Part shown: piece after piece, positions 3,765 to 45,536 of the stretch
Layout of the letters: every line of letters begins with the position of its first letter
How positions within the stretch are numbered: the stretch's first letter is position 1
From: Escherichia phage vB_EcoS_WFI
Length of the DNA: 45,536 bases
Sequence record: NC_073058.1
Strand: one strand, 5' to 3'
Program-made: the position numbers and the translations under genes
Notes under the pieces: generated by a model
Told to the model about the DNA's origin: nothing
Seen by the model: only the letters and a program-made list of their open reading frames with translations
Database searches by the model: none

Positions 3765-3828
3765 TGCTTGACTTGCAACCAACATAAGGGCCATACTGCA
3801 ACCAATCAACGAGAAGGAGTAACACACT

Positions 3829-11207: not shown

Positions 11208-11356
11208 TTGTGTGTCCTCATTGTTGGTGTGCAACCAATATAGTGCAACCAATACCTGGATTGCAAGCGAATTTTGCGATTATTTTTATCGCTGATAATA
11301 TTAGAGGCGTGAAGTCGAGCGGGTGGCCCGCTCTGCCACAATCCCAGGGGGATAGC

Positions 11357-22017: not shown

Positions 22018-22625
22018 CCACATTTAAATTGTACGGCGTCTTAGGACGTCGTTTTGGTAAAGTGCATAAGCTGGACTGCTTCACACCTGGCGAGGGTATC
22101 ACCGGCCTATGCGTGAAGTTGCCAGGCTTACAGGACTTTCTAATGTCGGCCCACCTGGAAAACATGATGTTCAAGGTGCGCAAGGGTAATCACACAATGA
22201 CCGGCTACGACGAGTTGGGTGAGTTCCACGGCGACCGCGTAGTTACCATCGCGCCGGTTATGACTGGTGCTAAAAGCGGACTTGGACAATTGCTGGCTGG
22301 CGTAGCTATCGTGGTGGCGTCGTTCTACACTGGCGGGCTTGCCGCTGCCGCTTTCGGGGCTTCCGCTGCGACCGCCGCCGCTATCGGAACGGCGACGTTT
22401 TCGTTCGGTATGTCGCTTGCGCTGGGCGGCGCTATGCAATTGCTGTCACCGCAACCGAAAGGATTGCAGATACGGCAGGACGTGGATAACAAGGCGTCGT
22501 ATGCGTTCGGCGGGCCGGTAAACACGACCGCGCAAGGCACAGCACTTGGTGTATTATGGGGTGAGCGTGAGATCGGCGGCGCTATTATTTCAGCCGGAAT
22601 TGTAACCGAGGATTTGAACGAATGA
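22008..22625 (+). CDS. tail assembly protein I-like
   Basis: Position; Gly/Ala-rich hydrophobic C-terminal half; overlaps K and J. Confidence 0.65.
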   Translation: MAMTTFKLYGVLGRRFGKVHKLDCFTPGEGITGLCVKLPGLQDFLMSAHLENMMFKVRKGNHTMTGYDELGEFHGDRVVTIAPVMTGAKSGLGQLLAGVAIVVASFYTGGLAAAAFGASAATAAAIGTATFSFGMSLALGGAMQLLSPQPKGLQIRQDVDNKASYAFGGPVNTTAQGTALGVLWGEREIGGAIISAGIVTEDLNE

Positions 22626-25600
22626 CGATTATCTACGACGTCACGGGCCATAAAGGCGGCGGTGGCAAACAGCACACCCCACAGGAGACGCCTGATAGCC
22701 TGCATTCGCTGGCTAAAATCCGCATCTTGCTCGCACTGGGCGAGGGCGAATTTGAAGGCATTCCCGACCCTAACGAATTACGGCAGCGTGTATACCTGGA
22801 CGGCACACCGATCCAGAACGCCGACCTGTCGGATAACTTCCCCGGCGCGCGCGTGGAGTTCCGCCCCGGCACGCAGCACCAGGATGTGATTCACGGTTTT
22901 TCAGCGGTGGAAAGCGAGCAAACAGTAGGCGTAAAACTGGAACAGGGACAGCCGTGGGTCCGCCAGATTTCGGACACCAGTCTGGACGCGGTGCGTATTC
23001 GAATCGGTATTCCGGCCCTGTACACCAACGAAGATAACGGCGACCTGGTGGGCGGGCGCATCGACTATAAAATCGTTGTGTATACAGATAACGCCGATCC
23101 GCGCGAGTTCACATTCGCTGCCGTTGGTAAAACAATGTCGCTGTACGAGCGAGATCACCGCATCGAATTACCGTCTAACGTTAACACCGGCTGGCGCGTG
23201 GAGGTGATCCGCACAACGGCAGACTCCACATCGGCGAAAGTGGTCAACGATATCCAGGTACAATCCATTACTGAGATTATCGACGCCCGCCTGCGTTACC
23301 CGCTAACCGCGCTGTTGTTCGTGGAGTTCGACGCTAAGGCTTTCCAGAACATCCCGCGCGTGTCAATCAAGTGCAAAGGCCGCAAAGTGCTGGTCCCGAA
23401 CAACTATGACCCCGTGAATCATACCTATTCTGGTAACTGGGACGGTACATTTAAACGCGCCTGGACGGATAATCCTGCGTGGCACTGGTACGATATTTGT
23501 ATTACTGAGCGCTTCGGCCTCGGTCGTCGTGTCAAGCCACAAATGCTAAACCGTTACGCACTCTACCAGATTGCGCAGCGCTGCGACCAGATGGTCAGTG
23601 ACGGCAACGGCGGTCAGGAAATCCGATTTAAGAATGATATGTACATTCAATCGCAGACCGACGCCTGGACCGTGCTGAAGGATTTAGCGGCTATCTTTGC
23701 TGGGATGACCTGGTGGGGCAACCAGATGCTGAATATTGTCAGTGACCAGCCGGTCGCAGCGGTATCGCATACTATCACCAACGCCTCGGTTATTGATGGT
23801 CGATTCGACTACGCATCGGGAAGCCAGAAAACTCGGTATTCCACGTTCTCTGTAGCCTACGGCAACCCGAAAAACCATTACGAGGACGCCATCGCAACGG
23901 GCCAGCGTGTCGAACTGGTGCGCCGCCATAAGATTAACCGCCTTGATATTACGGCGATCGGCTGTACGCGTGAATCTGAAGCGCAACGCCGCGGACACTG
24001 GGCGCTAATCTCCAACCAGCTTGATCAGCAAGTTAGCTTTAAGGTTGGCATGGAGGGGTTATTCTTTATTCCGGGGAGCGTAGTCGCGATCGCAGATACT
24101 AACATTTCTGGCGGCTTCGAGACACGCGGCGGACGTCTGTTGTCAGATCCGGGCACGCGCACCGTGCTGAACACGGACAGCGAAATCACGTTCCGCCCTG
24201 GCGATAAATTCCTGGTGCGCACCGATAGCGGTAATGTGGAGACTCGCGAGATTGCCAGCGTCAACGGCAACCAGGTCACGCTAAAAACCGCACTGGACGC
24301 CGACCCAATTCCTGATCAGCCGTTTTGCGTTGATGGCGATGATATCCAGTTGCAGAAGTTCCGCATCACCGACCTGGAATATGACGACGCTACCAGCACT
24401 TTCTCGGTGCGCGGGATTGAGTACAATGACAGCAAATATGATGCCGTTGATAATGGCGCGCGTCTTGATCCGGGTATCTTCACGCAAGTGCCGGACGGTG
24501 TAATGAAGGGGCCAGAATCCGTTACCATCACCCCGTCGCAGATCTCATCACAAGGCCAGCTAATCACCAACGTGGATATTGTTTTTCCGCCGGTGAAGGA
24601 TGCCGTTGTGTACGAAATCCAGTGGCGACGTACCAGCTTGCAGAATCTGGAAATCCAGTGGGGCAACGACTGGGTTAACATCCCCCGCACGGCGTCGAAT
24701 GGTGCGCATATCCCGAACGTGTTTTCTGGTAACTACCAGGCACGCGTCCGCGCTATCGGTATGGGCGAGATTTCATCCCCGTGGGTGTCATCCGCCATCA
24801 CGCCGGTGGAGGGTCGTCTTGGTGTGCTTAACGCGCCTATCATCACCAACGCGATTTCGGGCCTTCACCAAATTTTGTGGAAGTGGAATCACAACAACGC
24901 CGCAACGGATATTTCGTATACCGAGCTTGAAGTACGCAAGCTGGGCGAAACGGAATGGAAATTCCTAACCAACGTCCCATATCCGGGGTCGGACTATGCG
25001 CAAACGTCGCTGGAGTTCGGGATCTACCAGCAGTTGCGCGCACGCGTAGCGGATAAAATCGGCAACCTGTCAGACTGGTCCGATCCGTTCGACGGGCAGG
25101 TGAGTGACAAAGTTGACGAGTACATGCAGGGGCTTGATGACGAGTTCTTGACTTCCGAGGACGGTAAACACTTCCAGGAAGCAATCGACACCATTCCGCA
25201 AGGCATCTATGAGTCAATGCTTACGGACGCCCAGCAGTTATTCAACGCCCGCGCCGAGTATAAAGGGATTTATGCAGAAATTACGGTGGCGTATAACGTG
25301 GCGGCGGACGCTCACGAAGCCGTAGCGCAACTGGAAACGTTAATCGGCACGCGCCTTGACGACGCCGAAGCGTCAATCCACACGTTGCAGACCGCGCAAA
25401 GCACGCATGAACAGGCGTTCGCCCAGTACCAACAAACTGTTGCCGCTAAGTTCGGGGAGCAGGAAGCTGCCATCCAGCAGGTACAAACGGCAACGGCAGA
25501 CGTAGCGGGCGCGCTGGCGGAGTATAAGACCCAGGTCGCGGCACAGTTCGGTCAGCAGTCCGCAGCTATCGAGCAGAAGATGACGTCCTCGTTTAACCAT

Positions 25601-26068
25601 GCTGGCGGTAGCGCCACATACAGCCTTAAGGCTGGCGTGACGTATAACGGGACTTACTATGATGCCGGTATGCAGCTTTCCGTCGTGGCGGAAGGTGGCG
25701 CGGTTAAATCACGCATCGCGTTCAAGGCGGACCAGTTCTACATCATGCACCCATCTAACGGGACGCTCTCGTCCGCGTTTATCGTTGACGGCGGGCAGGT
25801 GTATATTGACACGGCACGCATCAAGAACGCGTCTATTAACTTCGCGCAGATCACGGACACGCTGCAATCCAATAACTGGAATCCAGGTAACAGCGGCTGG
25901 CGTATCGCGAAGGATGGCGGGGCGGAGTTCAACAACGTTACGGTACGCGGCAACTTGTTCGCAACTACGGGTAACTTTGGATTCTCCGGCGGGTCAGTGA
26001 CTATCGACGCAACGGGCGTCAACGTGCCATTACCTGGAGGGGGCAGGGTGAAAGTCGGGACGTGGTAA
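22622..26068 (+). CDS. central tail fiber / host specificity protein J-like
   Basis: 1148 aa; follows I; size and position as lambda J. Confidence 0.85.
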   Translation: MTIIYDVTGHKGGGGKQHTPQETPDSLHSLAKIRILLALGEGEFEGIPDPNELRQRVYLDGTPIQNADLSDNFPGARVEFRPGTQHQDVIHGFSAVESEQTVGVKLEQGQPWVRQISDTSLDAVRIRIGIPALYTNEDNGDLVGGRIDYKIVVYTDNADPREFTFAAVGKTMSLYERDHRIELPSNVNTGWRVEVIRTTADSTSAKVVNDIQVQSITEIIDARLRYPLTALLFVEFDAKAFQNIPRVSIKCKGRKVLVPNNYDPVNHTYSGNWDGTFKRAWTDNPAWHWYDICITERFGLGRRVKPQMLNRYALYQIAQRCDQMVSDGNGGQEIRFKNDMYIQSQTDAWTVLKDLAAIFAGMTWWGNQMLNIVSDQPVAAVSHTITNASVIDGRFDYASGSQKTRYSTFSVAYGNPKNHYEDAIATGQRVELVRRHKINRLDITAIGCTRESEAQRRGHWALISNQLDQQVSFKVGMEGLFFIPGSVVAIADTNISGGFETRGGRLLSDPGTRTVLNTDSEITFRPGDKFLVRTDSGNVETREIASVNGNQVTLKTALDADPIPDQPFCVDGDDIQLQKFRITDLEYDDATSTFSVRGIEYNDSKYDAVDNGARLDPGIFTQVPDGVMKGPESVTITPSQISSQGQLITNVDIVFPPVKDAVVYEIQWRRTSLQNLEIQWGNDWVNIPRTASNGAHIPNVFSGNYQARVRAIGMGEISSPWVSSAITPVEGRLGVLNAPIITNAISGLHQILWKWNHNNAATDISYTELEVRKLGETEWKFLTNVPYPGSDYAQTSLEFGIYQQLRARVADKIGNLSDWSDPFDGQVSDKVDEYMQGLDDEFLTSEDGKHFQEAIDTIPQGIYESMLTDAQQLFNARAEYKGIYAEITVAYNVAADAHEAVAQLETLIGTRLDDAEASIHTLQTAQSTHEQAFAQYQQTVAAKFGEQEAAIQQVQTATADVAGALAEYKTQVAAQFGQQSAAIEQKMTSSFNHAGGSATYSLKAGVTYNGTYYDAGMQLSVVAEGGAVKSRIAFKADQFYIMHPSNGTLSSAFIVDGGQVYIDTARIKNASINFAQITDTLQSNNWNPGNSGWRIAKDGGAEFNNVTVRGNLFATTGNFGFSGGSVTIDATGVNVPLPGGGRVKVGTW

Positions 26069-26073
26069 ATGAG

Positions 26074-26097
26074 AAGGGGCCATCCGGCCCCTTTTTT
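26074..26097. terminator. terminator between convergent genes
   Basis: AAGGGGCCATCCGGCCCCTT hairpin followed by TTTTTT. Confidence 0.6.
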
Positions 26098-27061
26098 AAT
26101 AGATATTAGGAATGACGAGTAACGGGGTGGGTACGGCAATATTTTTGCCCGGCATTTGGAATTGCTGCCGTGAGTAGTTGCCAATGACGCGGTTTTTGGC
26201 GATGCGCACATTATTACCCGCCATTCGTATCCCGTTCATGCGCACATGGTTGTATCCGCTGTTGTTCTCAATGAGCGCACCGGTATATGAAAGCTGGATC
26301 AGACTATTACCGATGTGCTGGTCGCCGCCACCGATATGAATCGTGCGGTCGTAGACAAACGGCTTGTTTACCGTCGAGAACGTGACCTGCCCCTGGTTGT
26401 TAGTCATGGTGATACCGGTCCCCGGTGAGGGCGGCGTATTGTTGAATATTACCAGGTCCATATCAACGGCAGCGCCTACGTCGTCAATCCCGCCATAGGA
26501 CGCATTACGGACGATAATACTTCCGCCATCGAAGCCAACCGATACGTTGCCGTCGTCCCAGCGCGCGAACGGGACACCGCCGACTGGTAGCGGCATACTT
26601 CCGTCTACCCGCACACGCTGCGCATATCGGCAGGTCATTAGCCGTGCTACGTTGGATATGGCGGTGAAGTCTGTAGAGTTAGCTACCAGAATCCCCGCAT
26701 TGCGTGACCCCACCGGCAGCACTTCCATAATCACCCCGCCCCATGTTGGAAGCCCGCTGTATGCGTTATAGGCGTCCTCACCGCGCAAGGTGATCCCGCC
26801 ATCCCCGTTACGTTGTATCGACGTCACATAAAACGGGTCTGGCAAGACCAGGGTCTGGTCGAATACTTCCATCACTTCTACCGGATTAGTTAGGGCAACG
26901 ACCAGTTCGGACCCTGGAGTCAGCGGTGTGTTAATGGTCAGCGTCTTGTCAGACTGACAGCGCTGATTAAAGGTAGTGCAAAACGACGGAGCGCGAAGGC
27001 CCGCGGTTATCTCCATGACAGGTCTACCGTCGTTGTAGTCGATAAGTATTCCAGCGCCCAT
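26096..27061 (-). CDS. hypothetical Gly/Asn-rich beta-type protein (321 aa), opposite strand
   Basis: ATG at 27061, 2 nt after the stop of the upstream lipoprotein gene; Gly/Asn/Val/Thr-rich composition (my guess: beta-rich); no recognised motif. Confidence 0.5.
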   Translation of the reverse strand: MGAGILIDYNDGRPVMEITAGLRAPSFCTTFNQRCQSDKTLTINTPLTPGSELVVALTNPVEVMEVFDQTLVLPDPFYVTSIQRNGDGGITLRGEDAYNAYSGLPTWGGVIMEVLPVGSRNAGILVANSTDFTAISNVARLMTCRYAQRVRVDGSMPLPVGGVPFARWDDGNVSVGFDGGSIIVRNASYGGIDDVGAAVDMDLVIFNNTPPSPGTGITMTNNQGQVTFSTVNKPFVYDRTIHIGGGDQHIGNSLIQLSYTGALIENNSGYNHVRMNGIRMAGNNVRIAKNRVIGNYSRQQFQMPGKNIAVPTPLLVIPNIY

Positions 27062-27063
27062 TA

Positions 27064-27285
27064 TTACCACTCCCGCGATTTAACTGATACTGTACCTGAG
27101 AAATTGCCGTCGCTATCGGCAGATAGGCCAGTGAAGCGCATGTCCACGTCTCCGGCAGGGACTTTCTGCCCGTCAACGTAACGCAACATGCAGCTTCCGT
27201 AAGCCACCGTAATGCAATCACCGTTGTTGCGTTCTACAGCACAACCGGACAAAAGAACAGCACAAATCATAATTAAAGTTTTCAT
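27064..27285 (-). CDS. small lipoprotein, Cor-like superinfection-exclusion candidate
   Basis: RBS AGGAGA before ATG; signal peptide with lipobox LLSGC; Cys-rich 73-aa product; location next to tail-fiber genes as for cor genes in T1/phi80-type phages. Confidence 0.45.
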   Translation of the reverse strand: MKTLIMICAVLLSGCAVERNNGDCITVAYGSCMLRYVDGQKVPAGDVDMRFTGLSADSDGNFSGTVSVKSREW

Positions 27286-27365
27286 GTTATCATCTCCTAT
27301 ATTTGGTTGAGTTTTAGTATTACACCGCTCGATCAAGAATGCAACCAATTTATGAGGATTCAGCT

Positions 27366-29408
27366 ATGGCAGCGGGTACACTATCCGTAACGAATAACAG
27401 CACCGCGGTGACTGGAGACGGCACAACGCTTACCGCGCTGAAGGCGGGCGACTTCCTGTCGCTGGTAGTAGGGCAAGTCCCTTACACTATTGCTATTGCA
27501 TCCATTGAGAGCGACACCGCGCTTACACTGGCGCTGCCGTTCGATGGCCCAACGGCAACCGGCCTCGCATGGGATAGCGTGGCGCGCGATACCATGTCCC
27601 TAGCAACGATGGGTGTAACCGTCCAGGCGCAGAAAGCACTACGCTTGATGATCGCGGATGAAAACAACTGGCGTGCAATCTTCGGCGACGCTGAAGAAGT
27701 CACGGTAACGCTGCCGAACGGGCAAGTTATGCAGGGAATGTCATGGGGCTACCTGTCATCCTTGTTAAAGGAAGTAGACCCCGTCGAAATGCGCGACCTG
27801 CAACAACAAGCCGCCGCATCGGAAGCCGCCGCGCTGGTGTCACGCAATGAGGCCGAAGGCTTCAAGAACGATGCCAATACCATCAAGACGCAGACCGACC
27901 AAATCAAGGCTGACACGCAGGCAATCCACGACGCCACCAATACGATCAAGACGCAGACCGACCAGATTAAGACCGATACGCAGGCTATCAAGGACCAGAC
28001 CAACCAGATTAAGACTGATACTGGCGTTATTCGCGATGAAGCCAATACTGCGAAGACTGACGCGCAAGCCGCCAGCACTGCCGCGCAGGGATTTCGCGAT
28101 CAGGCCGAAGAATGGGCGCAAAGCGTAAACGCGGATAATCTGCTAACTAAATCAGGAAACCTGGCAGGCGTTGCCGATGTGCAGACGTCGCGAACCAACC
28201 TCGAACTGGGGGAGGGTAACGAGCCGATTTTCAAGGGCGCCCTTGCTGTTAAATCGGCCCCCGACACCGTATCGGCACAGGGCGGAATGTTCCAGTCTAA
28301 GCTGCGGAATAGCGACGGCGACGATGTGGTTACAACGCAAAGCTACGCGGAAACACAACTTGGGGTCGGAAAGCACACGATCGGCGTAATCACGCCTTCG
28401 GGGGCACATTACTATCAACTCGACGTCGAAGGTAACTTTAACGGATTCAAGCGCCTGTCATCCGCGGCGGGTGGCGAAGTTCTCCTAAACGGCGTCGATA
28501 GTAACACCGTGCAGCTACTGTCGCTTAACCCACCAAAGCCGAACGACTACACCGGATTCACGCGGTATAACTGGCAAAATAGCGCGGTGTTTACCGGGCC
28601 GATTCGTCAGGGAGGGACGGGGCTTGAAGCCTATGAGGTCTACGTCCTGAATGCTGGCGTGGCGGAATGGCGCTACCGGTTTAGACCCGATGGAAAGATG
28701 TCCGCCAGACGACTTATCGCCGAAGGTTTCCAGACCGGCTGGGACCAGCCTAACAACTACGGGGACAGCGGTGTGTGGCTATCTGACGTCGGAAATAACG
28801 ACGGCGGCTGGGTTCCTGCAATCTCCTGGCGGTCCCAATCAACCGGCGGTTACCCTATCCGCGCCACGTGGGGGCTTATCTCTCAGGGCGCGGCGAACTG
28901 GCCCCGTGCGGCATTGCGATGCCGAGGGGATGGCGAAAACTGGACAAACTTCGAGTTCGTCGTTAACAGTTGCGATATCCAGGTCAGCGGTACATTCGGC
29001 GCGTACACGTTCTCCAAAGCGCCTACGTCCGACCGAGACCTGAAGCACGATATTAAGTACACGGAAGGGAAAGAAAGCTACGATCGCGTGATGCAGTGGC
29101 TTCCCACAATGTTTAAGTATAAAGGGTCGGAAATCCAGCGCTACGGCCTTATCGCGCAGGACCTGGTGAAAATCGATCCGCAATACGTGAAGATTATTCC
29201 AGGCGCACTTAAAAACCCGGACCTCGTAGGGGCTGAAGGATTCAAAGCCGAAGACGGCGACTACTACGACGACACGCTGGCACTTGACAGCAACGTCATG
29301 TTAACAGATATGGCGTGCGCGATGGTCTTCATGGGGCGTAAAGTGGAAGATATGCAGAAAGAACTGGAGGAATTGAAAGCTGCCGTAGCGGCACTGACCA
29401 AAGCATAA
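27366..29408 (+). CDS. tail fiber protein with C-terminal S74-type intramolecular chaperone domain
   Basis: N-terminal conserved domain; 21-aa tandem repeats TIKTQTDQIK(A/T)DTQAI; C-terminal motif TSDRDLKHDIKY...GLIAQDLVKIDPQYV typical of autocleaving chaperone domains. Confidence 0.75.
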   Translation: MAAGTLSVTNNSTAVTGDGTTLTALKAGDFLSLVVGQVPYTIAIASIESDTALTLALPFDGPTATGLAWDSVARDTMSLATMGVTVQAQKALRLMIADENNWRAIFGDAEEVTVTLPNGQVMQGMSWGYLSSLLKEVDPVEMRDLQQQAAASEAAALVSRNEAEGFKNDANTIKTQTDQIKADTQAIHDATNTIKTQTDQIKTDTQAIKDQTNQIKTDTGVIRDEANTAKTDAQAASTAAQGFRDQAEEWAQSVNADNLLTKSGNLAGVADVQTSRTNLELGEGNEPIFKGALAVKSAPDTVSAQGGMFQSKLRNSDGDDVVTTQSYAETQLGVGKHTIGVITPSGAHYYQLDVEGNFNGFKRLSSAAGGEVLLNGVDSNTVQLLSLNPPKPNDYTGFTRYNWQNSAVFTGPIRQGGTGLEAYEVYVLNAGVAEWRYRFRPDGKMSARRLIAEGFQTGWDQPNNYGDSGVWLSDVGNNDGGWVPAISWRSQSTGGYPIRATWGLISQGAANWPRAALRCRGDGENWTNFEFVVNSCDIQVSGTFGAYTFSKAPTSDRDLKHDIKYTEGKESYDRVMQWLPTMFKYKGSEIQRYGLIAQDLVKIDPQYVKIIPGALKNPDLVGAEGFKAEDGDYYDDTLALDSNVMLTDMACAMVFMGRKVEDMQKELEELKAAVAALTKA

Positions 29409-29412
29409 TTAG

Positions 29413-29436
29413 AAGGGGCCATACGGCCCCTTTTTT
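29413..29436. terminator. terminator between convergent tail fiber and leftward genes
   Basis: AAGGGGCCATACGGCCCCTT hairpin followed by TTTTTT. Confidence 0.6.
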
Positions 29437-30010
29437 AGTTTGAGTTTTCCCAATCCATTTTGCGCCGCACCAGCGGACTCTCATAATATTCCTTGCCTTC
29501 TACTTCCACCAACGGCCAATCGTTCACGATTACGTACGGTTCCGCAATATCCTCAATCACGCCGTGCGCGCTATGTTGTCCGAACGATACACCCACCAGG
29601 ATAACACCGGCAACTCGACGGGTTAGATACTCGCGAGCGCAACGGGCTTCTACCAGTCCGCGACGGATGCCGCTGGTGGCTTTGACCTCGTAGGTCCAGA
29701 CGGCGTCAATCATGTGCTCACGGAAGTCGGGGCCGGACTTAACCTTGCGCTTACCGACCATGATAATATCGCCGCGGTCGATAGTATTGGCGCTAAACAG
29801 GCCGGTACGCATAAGTAAGCCTTGCGGGATACAACTACGCCCGCCTGCCTGCCCTTCAAGGTACATGCCCGCAAACATCTCGCCCAGCACACCGACAAGA
29901 CGGCTTTGCTTGCAAGCGTCAGACTTTAAGCGCCACTGGTCAAACTCGACGCTTGCTAACATTGCCGCTATGTGGAATTGTTTACCTGTTATTTCATATT
30001 CGCCGTACAT
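29435..30010 (-). CDS. hypothetical protein, possible PD-(D/E)xK nuclease fold
   Basis: 191 aa; motif GDIIMVGKRK...IDAVWTYEVKA resembles D...E-x-K; weak. Confidence 0.4.
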   Translation of the reverse strand: MYGEYEITGKQFHIAAMLASVEFDQWRLKSDACKQSRLVGVLGEMFAGMYLEGQAGGRSCIPQGLLMRTGLFSANTIDRGDIIMVGKRKVKSGPDFREHMIDAVWTYEVKATSGIRRGLVEARCAREYLTRRVAGVILVGVSFGQHSAHGVIEDIAEPYVIVNDWPLVEVEGKEYYESPLVRRKMDWENSN

Positions 30011-30636: not shown

Positions 30637-31107
30637 CTATTGGTTGCAAGTAAATTTTGCTACGTTTATAGAATAAATTTTCGGGACCAGATCGCCGCAC
30701 GCGCGACGTATGGCTTCGATATTCTTCGGGCAGTCTTCAATGATGACCAGTTCGGACACGTCCGCATAGCACACCATTTTGAACACCGCGCACGCCTTAA
30801 ATTCCGGCGGTGGGGTGTCATCCAGCATGTGGCGCATGAACAACCGGCCTGTCGGGAATACTTTCAACTGTTCAGCGGTAGTCTCCCAGCATTCGCGCTG
30901 CCGGTTAGTCAGATACGCTATCTCGAAGCCTTGCTCTTTGTACATGCGCAGCAACGGCAGCATGTCCATGTTCAGGTCTTCGCGGACGTGCGCTTTGTGC
31001 CACTTCGCCCAAAAGGTTGATTTGGTTTTTATGCCGGGCACCAGGTCAGCACGCGCATCACTTGAACCATTAATAACGCCATCCAGATCACAAATCAGTA
31101 GTTTCAT
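30637..31107 (-). CDS. HAD-superfamily phosphatase (polynucleotide 3'-phosphatase or nucleotidase-like)
   Basis: N-terminal motif LICDLDGVI (DxDGT-type). Confidence 0.55.
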   Translation of the reverse strand: MKLLICDLDGVINGSSDARADLVPGIKTKSTFWAKWHKAHVREDLNMDMLPLLRMYKEQGFEIAYLTNRQRECWETTAEQLKVFPTGRLFMRHMLDDTPPPEFKACAVFKMVCYADVSELVIIEDCPKNIEAIRRACGDLVPKIYSINVAKFTCNQ

Positions 31108-32488: not shown

Positions 32489-32568
32489 CGTAATGTCTCC
32501 AGGTATTAAAAAGGGCGTCCAACCGGACACCCTTAAGATAATGCAACCAATCTAATTACGCAACCAAT

Positions 32569-35484: not shown

Positions 35485-35763
35485 CTACGCGACCAATTCA
35501 GCAACCAATAAATCGCAGTCGGCTATGTTGTCAATAACGCGAACGTCAGCACCGCGGCGGGCCATTCGCTCATGTTCTCGCACCTGGTGCGGCTTCGGTT
35601 TTCCTCCGGGGCGCTTCACTTCGACGAATACTATGATGCCGTTGATGATAATAATCAGGTCGGGCGCACCTGCGCGCCCCTCCCATGCCAGCTTGCGGCA
35701 GAATCCGCCAACCTCTTTCACCCGTCGCATCAGGTGACTTTGAATATTGCCTTCTGGTGTCAT
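35485..35763 (-). CDS. VRR-NUC domain nuclease
   Basis: Motifs PDLIII..G.IVFVEVKRPGGK. Confidence 0.6.
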   Translation of the reverse strand: MTPEGNIQSHLMRRVKEVGGFCRKLAWEGRAGAPDLIIIINGIIVFVEVKRPGGKPKPHQVREHERMARRGADVRVIDNIADCDLLVAELVA

Positions 35764-42345: not shown

Positions 42346-42375
42346 ATAATAGATTGGTTGCAGGTGGGGTGTCAA
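42346..42375 (-). promoter_or_regulatory. sigma70-like leftward promoter TTGACA-N18-TATTAT
   Basis: Minus strand reads GTTGACACCCCACCTGCAACCAATCTATTAT; about 190-nt leader to ATG 42149. Confidence 0.45.
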
Positions 42376-45157: not shown

Positions 45158-45263
45158 ATTTTGCGCGCATTGGTTGCCATTTTGAGTGTTTTTAGCTGGT
45201 CGCATTGGTTGCCGTGTAGTGTGAATATAGTGAATAGTTATGCATTTTTATTGCATAAAGTAA

Positions 45264-45421: not shown

Positions 45422-45536
45422 CATAAAATCCTGGATTGCATAATGTACGGCAGTATGATGCGAATTGCGGTCGTTGATGAACTAGGCAACCAATGCGAGT
45501 TGTATTATGGTGAGTGAAAAATGCAGTTTGCAGTTA

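Follow-up and report, generated by a model that had tools for sequence, protein, structure and literature searches.

In Escherichia phage vB_EcoS_WFI, the J-like tail tip gene and the lateral tail fibre gene are separated by two genes that run leftward, antisense to both neighbours, and the question arises of what such a pair does for the phage. The record analysed (NC_073058.1), which in its full length of 45,536 nucleotides is referred to below as the window, is the genome of a coliphage belonging to Dhillonvirus (HK578/SO-1-like small siphophages). The original prediction had read the pair as an exclusion unit composed of a Cor-like lipoprotein of 73 aa and a larger protein of 321 aa, the latter being an exclusion factor, an adhesin or a depolymerase-like protein. 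We are instead highly confident, from orthology, that the pair represents the LptD-type host-recognition cassette of a Dhillonvirus, the larger gene encoding the receptor-binding protein (RBP) and the smaller one an exclusion lipoprotein. The locus is known, and the finding is already explained in the literature of 2021-2025. Orthologues provide the RBP-LptDE and Rtp45-LptDE structures and the LptD resistance mutations used below, while the orthology, the gene anatomy and the cassette limits come from the WFI genome.

The J-like tail tip gene occupies 22622-26068 on the plus strand. It is followed on the same strand by the lateral tail fibre gene at 27366-29408, whose true start, judging from the annotation of related phages, is 27366 and not the ATG at 27339. 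Between them, on the minus strand, lie the pre-lipoprotein gene (73 aa, 27285..27064) and the RBP gene (321 aa, 27061..26096), and the leftward two-gene arrangement was thus located correctly at the outset. The TAA of the lipoprotein gene is followed by 'TA' and then by the ATG of the 321-aa ORF, and this 2-nt gap suggests translational coupling. The Shine-Dalgarno sequence AGGAGA (27298-27293) is placed 7 nt 5' of the lipoprotein ATG, as had been noted, and GGGAG is found 8 nt 5' of the RBP ATG. The RBP gene is convergent with J, the two stop codons being 27 nt apart.

The region from 25900 to 27500 showed 98% identity to Escherichia phage vB_EcoS-22664B1 and 95-96% identity to the BASEL phages Bas83 and Bas85, with the modules of Bas83-85 sharing 96% DNA identity with that of WFI. 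The same gene layout is common to Oekolampad, HK578 and Rtp. In comparison with Oekolampad, synonymous and non-synonymous codon differences numbered 20 and 1 in the lipoprotein gene and 116 and 37 in the 321-aa gene, without indels in either, a pattern that points to purifying selection on both genes. Together with Pfam E-values of 3.6e-21 for the lipoprotein and 3.8e-118 for the larger protein, these indel-free differences mark both ORFs as genuine genes rather than chance ORFs. An NCBIfam scan gave no match for either protein.

The 321-aa protein (34.4 kDa) is Gly/Asn-rich, as first described (G 11.5%, N 8.4%). Its match to PF20051 (DUF6453) reached 394.5 bits (cutoff 25) and spanned protein residues 4-297 and profile positions 1-290 of 291, and it also matched phrog_1265 (5e-117). 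Sequence searches with both proteins, which had been proposed as a check, led in each case to a solved chain. For the larger protein the PDB search at E<=1 returned a single match, chain C of 9RPT/9RPW/9RQI ('Tail fiber protein'), with an E-value of 1e-191 for 9rpt_C over residues 1-321, and no pb5 chain was returned at this threshold. Identity was 88% to Oekolampad (Bas18) bas18_0025 over the full length, 98% to the Bas85 protein and 35% to Rtp44 of the Drexlerviridae phage Rtp. No signal peptide and no transmembrane segment were detected in the protein, the maximum 19-residue Kyte-Doolittle hydropathy being 1.25. Conservation within the family is highest over residues 1-32, which agrees with the mapping by Black et al. 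2025 (PMC13035648) of invariant residues to the 'base' of their model and not to the LptD-binding end. The single-sequence AlphaFold2 model of the RBP had a pLDDT of 29; judged from its identity to the solved Oekolampad chain, the protein would fold as a double beta-sandwich with distal loops.

What this homology implies can be taken from studies of the orthologues. Small siphophages were shown to carry allelic 'bona fide RBP loci' directly downstream of gpJ, and these loci, with their cognate exclusion genes, matched the determined receptor without exception; in the case of Bas14 and Bas18 this receptor was LptD (Maffei et al. 2021, PMC8594841). Cryo-EM then placed the Oekolampad RBP on the extracellular face of LptDE (PDB 9RPT/9RPW/9RQI), deep in the lumen of the open LptDE and in contact with EL3-5 and EL11, and the LptD substitutions D352Y and Y671N abolished both RBP binding and infection (Dunbar et al. 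PNAS 2025, PMC12685063). By orthology, we identify the 321-aa protein as the tail-tip RBP, predicted to cap the central tail fibre and to be specific for LptD. Of the three roles first suggested for it, adhesin came close, while the other two did not survive its close homology to the Oekolampad RBP.

The loss of infection by the same receptor mutations that block binding of the orthologue bears directly on the reading in which the two genes form a moron-like exclusion unit, with the 321-aa protein a membrane-associated exclusion factor or a depolymerase and not part of the virion. Such a unit would suit genes that run antisense to the tail operon and are co-transcribed with an exclusion gene, and it would suit the label attached to phrog_1265 ('membrane protein; moron, auxiliary metabolic gene and host takeover'). 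However, the protein is devoid of any signal peptide or transmembrane segment, a PADLOC scan gave no match for either protein, and the last residues of J co-vary with the allele of the 321-aa gene (see below). We therefore consider a two-gene exclusion unit to be extremely unlikely; with 88% identity to a solved tail-tip RBP, the larger protein is predicted to be a virion component, an outcome that the original prediction had itself named as contrary to it, and this part of the prediction has to be abandoned. The 'membrane protein' reading of the 321-aa protein was rejected for want of a transmembrane segment, and a depolymerase or beta-helix reading was rejected as the DUF6453 family is described as a double beta-sandwich.

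The 73-aa protein, whose N-terminal sequence begins MKTLIMICAVLLSGC, carries the features of a lipoprotein precursor. Residues 5-15 (IMICAVLLSGC, core LLSGC) fit a PROSITE-type lipobox pattern, preceded by Lys2 in the n-region and containing the hydrophobic core, with Cys15 as the lipidated residue by pattern and Ala16 at the +2 position. The +2 residue is hence not Asp, in keeping with predicted sorting to the outer membrane. On the minus strand the lipobox match places the signal peptide codons at 27285-27244 and the Cys15 codon at 27243-27241, leaving a predicted mature lipoprotein of 59 aa and 6.3 kDa. The LLSGC lipobox and the several cysteines of the original description are thus borne out, the four Cys being residues 8, 15, 24 and 32.

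The lipoprotein matched PF24052 (Phage_lipoprotein) with 75.4 bits against a cutoff of 27, and phrog_4281 at 3.7e-33. Its significant match in the PDB was 9rps_D, 'Phage lipoprotein' (= Rtp45), with an E-value of 2e-8; the other matches in a search extended to an E-value of 10 were non-significant and unrelated, and no Llp chain was among them. Identity amounted to 99% with Oekolampad bas18_0026, from which it differs by the sole substitution A61S, 100% with the Bas85 protein and 40% with Rtp45. In the alignment, Cys24 and Cys32 fall on the disulfide-forming Cys30 and Cys38 of Rtp45, and no aligned member lacks either residue. These matches assign the lipoprotein, by sequence, to PF24052/phrog_4281, the Rtp45 family, and Rtp44 and Rtp45 themselves match the same Pfam and PHROG families as the WFI pair.

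A Cor-type exclusion lipoprotein had been proposed, and the comparison with Cor required some care. The Cor profile (phrog_1119) matched residues 1-30 of the WFI lipoprotein only, that is the signal peptide, with an E-value of 6.4e-4. As a positive control, Cor of the FhuA-type Dhillonvirus JLBYU37 (gp19) hit phrog_1119 at 3.1e-26 across residues 1-72, and in BLASTP the alignment of the WFI lipoprotein with JLBYU37 Cor was limited to an identical 16-aa signal peptide, MKTLIMICAVLLSGCA. In the FhuA cassette of JLBYU37, Cor is accompanied by phrog_557 and phrog_425 proteins, while the partner of the WFI lipoprotein is the DUF6453 protein. Membership of the Cor family was therefore rejected, as the mature domains are unrelated; the weak match arises because the signal peptide is common to both, and the lipoprotein should not be filed as Cor. 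Thus, while a lipoprotein that very probably, by homology, mediates superinfection exclusion via the phage's own receptor was correctly foreseen, its family is that of PF24052/Rtp45 and its predicted receptor LptD, not FhuA. The resemblance to Cor (T1, phi80, N15; phrog_1119) is one of general design, in that Cor is likewise a small outer-membrane lipoprotein encoded beside RBP genes that blocks the phage's own receptor.

The mechanism of exclusion has been worked out for Rtp45. In its structure (PDB 9RPS) it contacts LptD from the periplasm, where it is flanked by LptE and LptM, and a hairpin extends upward in the lumen, moving EL4 by as much as 20 A, an arrangement incompatible with RBP binding (Dunbar et al. 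2025, PMC12685063). The same study could not express the Oekolampad exclusion lipoprotein, so that the mechanism is known from Rtp45, a protein with 40% identity to the WFI lipoprotein; for the Oekolampad lipoprotein the cited literature reports no exclusion phenotype. This failed expression, and the close translational coupling of the lipoprotein to the 321-aa gene, might be held to favour some other outer-membrane role, such as an o-spanin-like function in lysis or that of a chaperone for the 321-aa protein, in place of exclusion. The chances of this appear vanishingly small, given that Rtp45 co-purifies with LptDE, occupies its lumen and clashes with RBP binding, and that FhuA-type Dhillonviruses have a genuine Cor in this slot, with the same candidate promoter and signal peptide. 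Moreover, the spanin and holin genes of the syntenic JLBYU37 are annotated elsewhere in its genome.

The comparison with JLBYU37 also defined the limits of the cassette. Nucleotide homology to this FhuA-dependent Dhillonvirus ends at 25877, about 64 codons before the J stop, and is picked up again at 27239, within the signal peptide of the lipoprotein. Seen in this alignment, the swappable cassette extends from the last ~64 codons of J through the mature part of the lipoprotein. In the same slot JLBYU37 carries two RBP-type genes (phrog_557 and phrog_425) that are co-directional with J, and Cor (phrog_1119) is the only gene directed leftward, whereas in WFI both genes run leftward. Cor of these FhuA-type phages thus occupies the same slot behind the same signal peptide, but acts on FhuA with an unrelated mature domain. 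The JLBYU37 entry UGO56832.1, given as the RBP entry in Lewis et al. 2023 (PMC10373560), is the J protein.

When J C-termini were aligned, the Oekolampad-type LptD phages were found to share one tail and JLBYU37 to carry another, and the Dhillonvirus HK578 combined an Rtp-like J tail with an Rtp-like RBP. These alignments indicate that each RBP allele comes with its own version of the J C-terminus. The allele-specific tip of J (25878..26068, plus strand), delimited by the break in JLBYU37 homology and by the C-terminal alignment, is the presumed docking site of the RBP, an idea that fits because the J tails co-vary with the RBP allele.

Oekolampad remains the closest solved relative. Its bas18_0025 and bas18_0026 are orthologous to the WFI pair, belong to a phage of the same genus and agree in position, orientation and 2-nt spacing, and its J tail and control region are the same as in WFI; the lateral tail fibre differs in length, with 680 aa in WFI and 606 aa in Oekolampad. 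In Rtp, the Rtp44/Rtp45 genes likewise combine the DUF6453 and PF24052 families downstream of J, with the lipoprotein gene first, and both the lipid-anchor Cys and the disulfide pair of Rtp45 are conserved in the WFI lipoprotein. Rtp belongs, however, to a different phage family; its two proteins are only 35% and 40% identical to those of WFI, its genes overlap by 1 nt where those of WFI are 2 nt apart, and the WFI lipoprotein has a longer C-terminal loop than Rtp45.

The WFI RBP differs from the solved Oekolampad RBP by 37 substitutions, which raises the question of whether the allele, still paired with its exclusion lipoprotein, has drifted to another or an additional outer-membrane receptor, or to LptD loops other than those used by Oekolampad. 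Bas83-85, the close relatives of WFI at this locus, had LptD predicted, not demonstrated, as their receptor (Humolli et al. 2025, PMC11990801), and a 2026 bioRxiv preprint (10.64898/2026.04.02.716166) reported no clear screen phenotype for them, assigning Bas83 and Bas84 to LptD by locus structure; the preprint also found that Bas01 requires both NupG and LptD. The additional NupG requirement was, however, mapped to a J domain and not to the RBP locus, and the same preprint, which reads the locus as we do, groups family proteins with more than 30% identity as LptD-specific. Most of the WFI substitutions are conservative, and their positions are scattered over the length of the protein; Gln299, the one RBP contact that Dunbar et al. 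name in their main text, is conserved. Furthermore, the lipoprotein, which is bound to fit the same receptor, is nearly or fully identical to the Oekolampad and Bas85 proteins. A change of receptor is accordingly very unlikely in our view. From orthology we infer that the WFI RBP allele still binds LptD, and the expression timing of the leftward pair is likewise deduced. The remaining uncertainty is limited to the WFI allele, whose LptD use and exclusion phenotype, like those of its closest relatives, are predictions.

With the pair taken as an LptD-type RBP and its exclusion lipoprotein, infection by WFI could be envisaged as follows. The J fibre would carry the RBP at its tip, and, once the lateral fibre has dealt with O-antigen, the distal loops of the RBP would enter the lumen of the open LptD barrel of the LptDE lipopolysaccharide translocon (EL3-5, EL11), an insertion expected to lead to irreversible adsorption and to trigger DNA ejection. 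In the infected cell, the pre-lipoprotein would be exported, lipidated on Cys15 and, with Ala at +2, delivered by the Lol system to the outer membrane, in its inner leaflet. From this position it would bind the periplasmic side of LptD and send a beta-hairpin up the lumen to push EL4 outward, so that the RBP could no longer bind and superinfection would be prevented. Such exclusion would stop the loss of progeny on infected cells and debris.

The logic is shared with pb5 and Llp of T5, where a separate RBP at the tip of the central fibre is likewise encoded next to a small periplasmic lipoprotein that alters the extracellular loops of the receptor. In contrast to T5 Llp, however, which acts on FhuA by long-range 'reverse' allostery, the loop is physically pushed in the LptD system, and exclusion amounts to steric loop displacement in a receptor that is not TonB-dependent. 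The WFI pair would thus work like pb5/Llp but is not a member of that system, the PDB sequence searches, run at E up to 1 for the RBP and up to 10 for the lipoprotein, having returned no pb5 or Llp chain.

The sequences that flank the two genes were then considered with regard to their expression. Terminators and an ATTGGTTGC-containing upstream region had been said to bracket the unit. The motif was confirmed as an exact match at 27349-27341 on the minus strand, but a single terminator was found, on the downstream side. This is a GC-rich hairpin in the J/RBP intergenic region (26071-26097), identified by folding, with the core GGGGCC-ATCC-GGCCCC followed by T6 on the plus strand. Its RNA folds at -18.7 kcal/mol on the plus and -15.7 kcal/mol on the minus strand (z-scores -2.2 and -2.6), and it likely serves both strands as a bidirectional intrinsic terminator. 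The consensus terminator scan missed it, probably since extension of the stem consumed the T tract. No hairpin was seen in the 80-bp upstream intergenic region.

This divergent control region (27286..27365; minus strand for the leftward pair), defined from sequence and cross-genome alignment, is nearly invariant across Dhillonviruses that carry Oekolampad-type LptD, Rtp-type LptD (HK578) or FhuA/Cor-type (JLBYU37) cassettes. A candidate leftward promoter on the minus strand consists of a -35 element TTGCAT (27344-27339), itself weak, a spacer of 17 nt and an extended -10 element TG-T-AATACT (27324-27316); a strict sigma-70 consensus scan did not list it and returned only chance-level sites. 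The ATTGGTTGC motif has 15 exact copies in the window compared with 0.63 expected from shuffles, and a literature search for it retrieved only unrelated papers. Both genes appear to form one leftward transcription unit that runs from the control region to the hairpin shared with J. If the promoter is real, the LptD-type cassette expresses its exclusion protein and its RBP from one leftward transcript.

For annotation, the '321-aa hypothetical / membrane protein' could be renamed an LptD-type receptor-binding protein and its neighbour an Rtp45-type superinfection-exclusion protein, and the terminal receptor of WFI becomes predictable as LptD. As a drug target, LptD is both essential and exposed at the cell surface. 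Interest in phages with this receptor comes from phage steering and receptor engineering, and the cassette limits within the last ~64 codons of J and within the lipoprotein signal peptide would be useful for engineering receptor swaps. Because the near-invariant lipoprotein would wedge itself into the lumen of LptD, and LptD is an essential exporter of LPS, the lipoprotein might also affect this export or the permeability of the outer membrane in the infected cell, and the WFI RBP, 12% divergent from that of Oekolampad, may contact LptD differently, for example by tolerating D352Y or Y671N. We regard these suggestions as speculative and rather unlikely; if true, the lipoprotein would be a host-takeover factor besides an exclusion factor. 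The same two families also occur, unlinked, in phiEco32-like podoviruses, an occurrence that would make LptD a receptor across morphotypes.

The DUF6453 family of the 321-aa protein (window 26096-27061), phrog_1265, carries the label 'membrane protein / moron' in both PHROG and GenBank. The label is misleading for this family: the 321-aa sequence is devoid of a hydrophobic segment, with 19-residue hydropathy peaking at 1.25. The phrog_1265 protein encoded here is a tail-tip receptor-binding protein.

Both recombination junctions of the receptor cassette, which comprises this gene and that of its partner exclusion lipoprotein, lie within coding sequence. The first (25877/25878) falls in the tail tip gene J, about 64 codons short of the gene end, while the second (27238/27239) falls within the signal peptide of the lipoprotein. 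That signal peptide is identical in the Rtp45-type lipoprotein of the window and in the unrelated Cor-type lipoprotein of the FhuA-type Dhillonvirus JLBYU37 (L007:12425-12643). Citrobacter phage HCF1 (L005:3272-3602) has an ORF for a PF24052-like lipoprotein, in which the family resemblance is lost in the C-terminal half, and a DUF6453 gene retaining the first 34 codons only and running into the opposite-strand J gene. Since the HCF1 record is flagged UNVERIFIED_ASMBLY, the cassette may have decayed in this phage or been misassembled in the record.

Some phages with this enterobacterial type of LptD module were deposited under host names that seem questionable. 'Acinetobacter phage NJ01' (OQ221563.1) is a Dhillonvirus with 86% identity to the cassette region, and the receptor cassette is likewise present in 'Campylobacter phage A127/A121' (MG065667.1 and MG065670.1).

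The lateral tail fibre gene is a second hypervariable host-range locus: the length of its product differs between close relatives, with 680 aa for the window phage and 22664B1, 606 aa for Oekolampad and 592 aa for Bas85. The window protein has a Peptidase_S74 intramolecular chaperone domain at its C-terminus. The ORF as listed mechanically (27339-29408) opens at an upstream ATG at 27339, while annotations of relatives place the start at 27366, with GAGGA ahead of it. Directly past this gene lies a conserved ORF of 191 aa (29435-30010, -), which matched phrog_10558 (2e-118) and for which no Pfam family was found.

The DUF6453 and PF24052 families are both present, in unlinked form, in phiEco32-like podoviruses (Gordonclarkvirinae). 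The DUF6453 protein Bas86_0016 (L008:3659-4690) is encoded in the tail module and matched the Pfam family at 4.5e-25 and the Oekolampad receptor-binding protein chain 9rpt_C at 7e-12. The PF24052 lipoprotein of phage 1-6af (L009:2468-2749) gave a strong match (1.7e-36) and keeps both the lipobox and the Cys pair; its gene sits among small genes annotated merely as hypothetical. These matches suggest that LptD may be a terminal receptor of these podoviruses. The BASEL paper modelled them with short fibres binding the LPS core, and makes no mention of LptD as their receptor.

The motif ATTGGTTGC occurs in 15 exact copies in the window, against 0.63 expected from shuffles, at 40-48, 71-79, 781-789, 3798-3806, 11231-11239, 11245-11253, 27341-27349, 30639-30647, 32543-32551, 32560-32568, 35501-35509, 42353-42361, 45169-45177, 45204-45212 and 45486-45494. 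Judged by sequence context, the majority appear to be intergenic; copies are frequently paired with a spacing of 14-35 bp or arranged as inverted repeats, and five cluster in the stretch spanning the window ends. Searching the literature for this motif turned up unrelated papers only. In several cases a -10-like hexamer (e.g. TATAGT) lies 17 nt downstream of the TTGC within the motif, which is probably an operator or promoter element of some phage regulator. JLBYU37 carries 14 copies.
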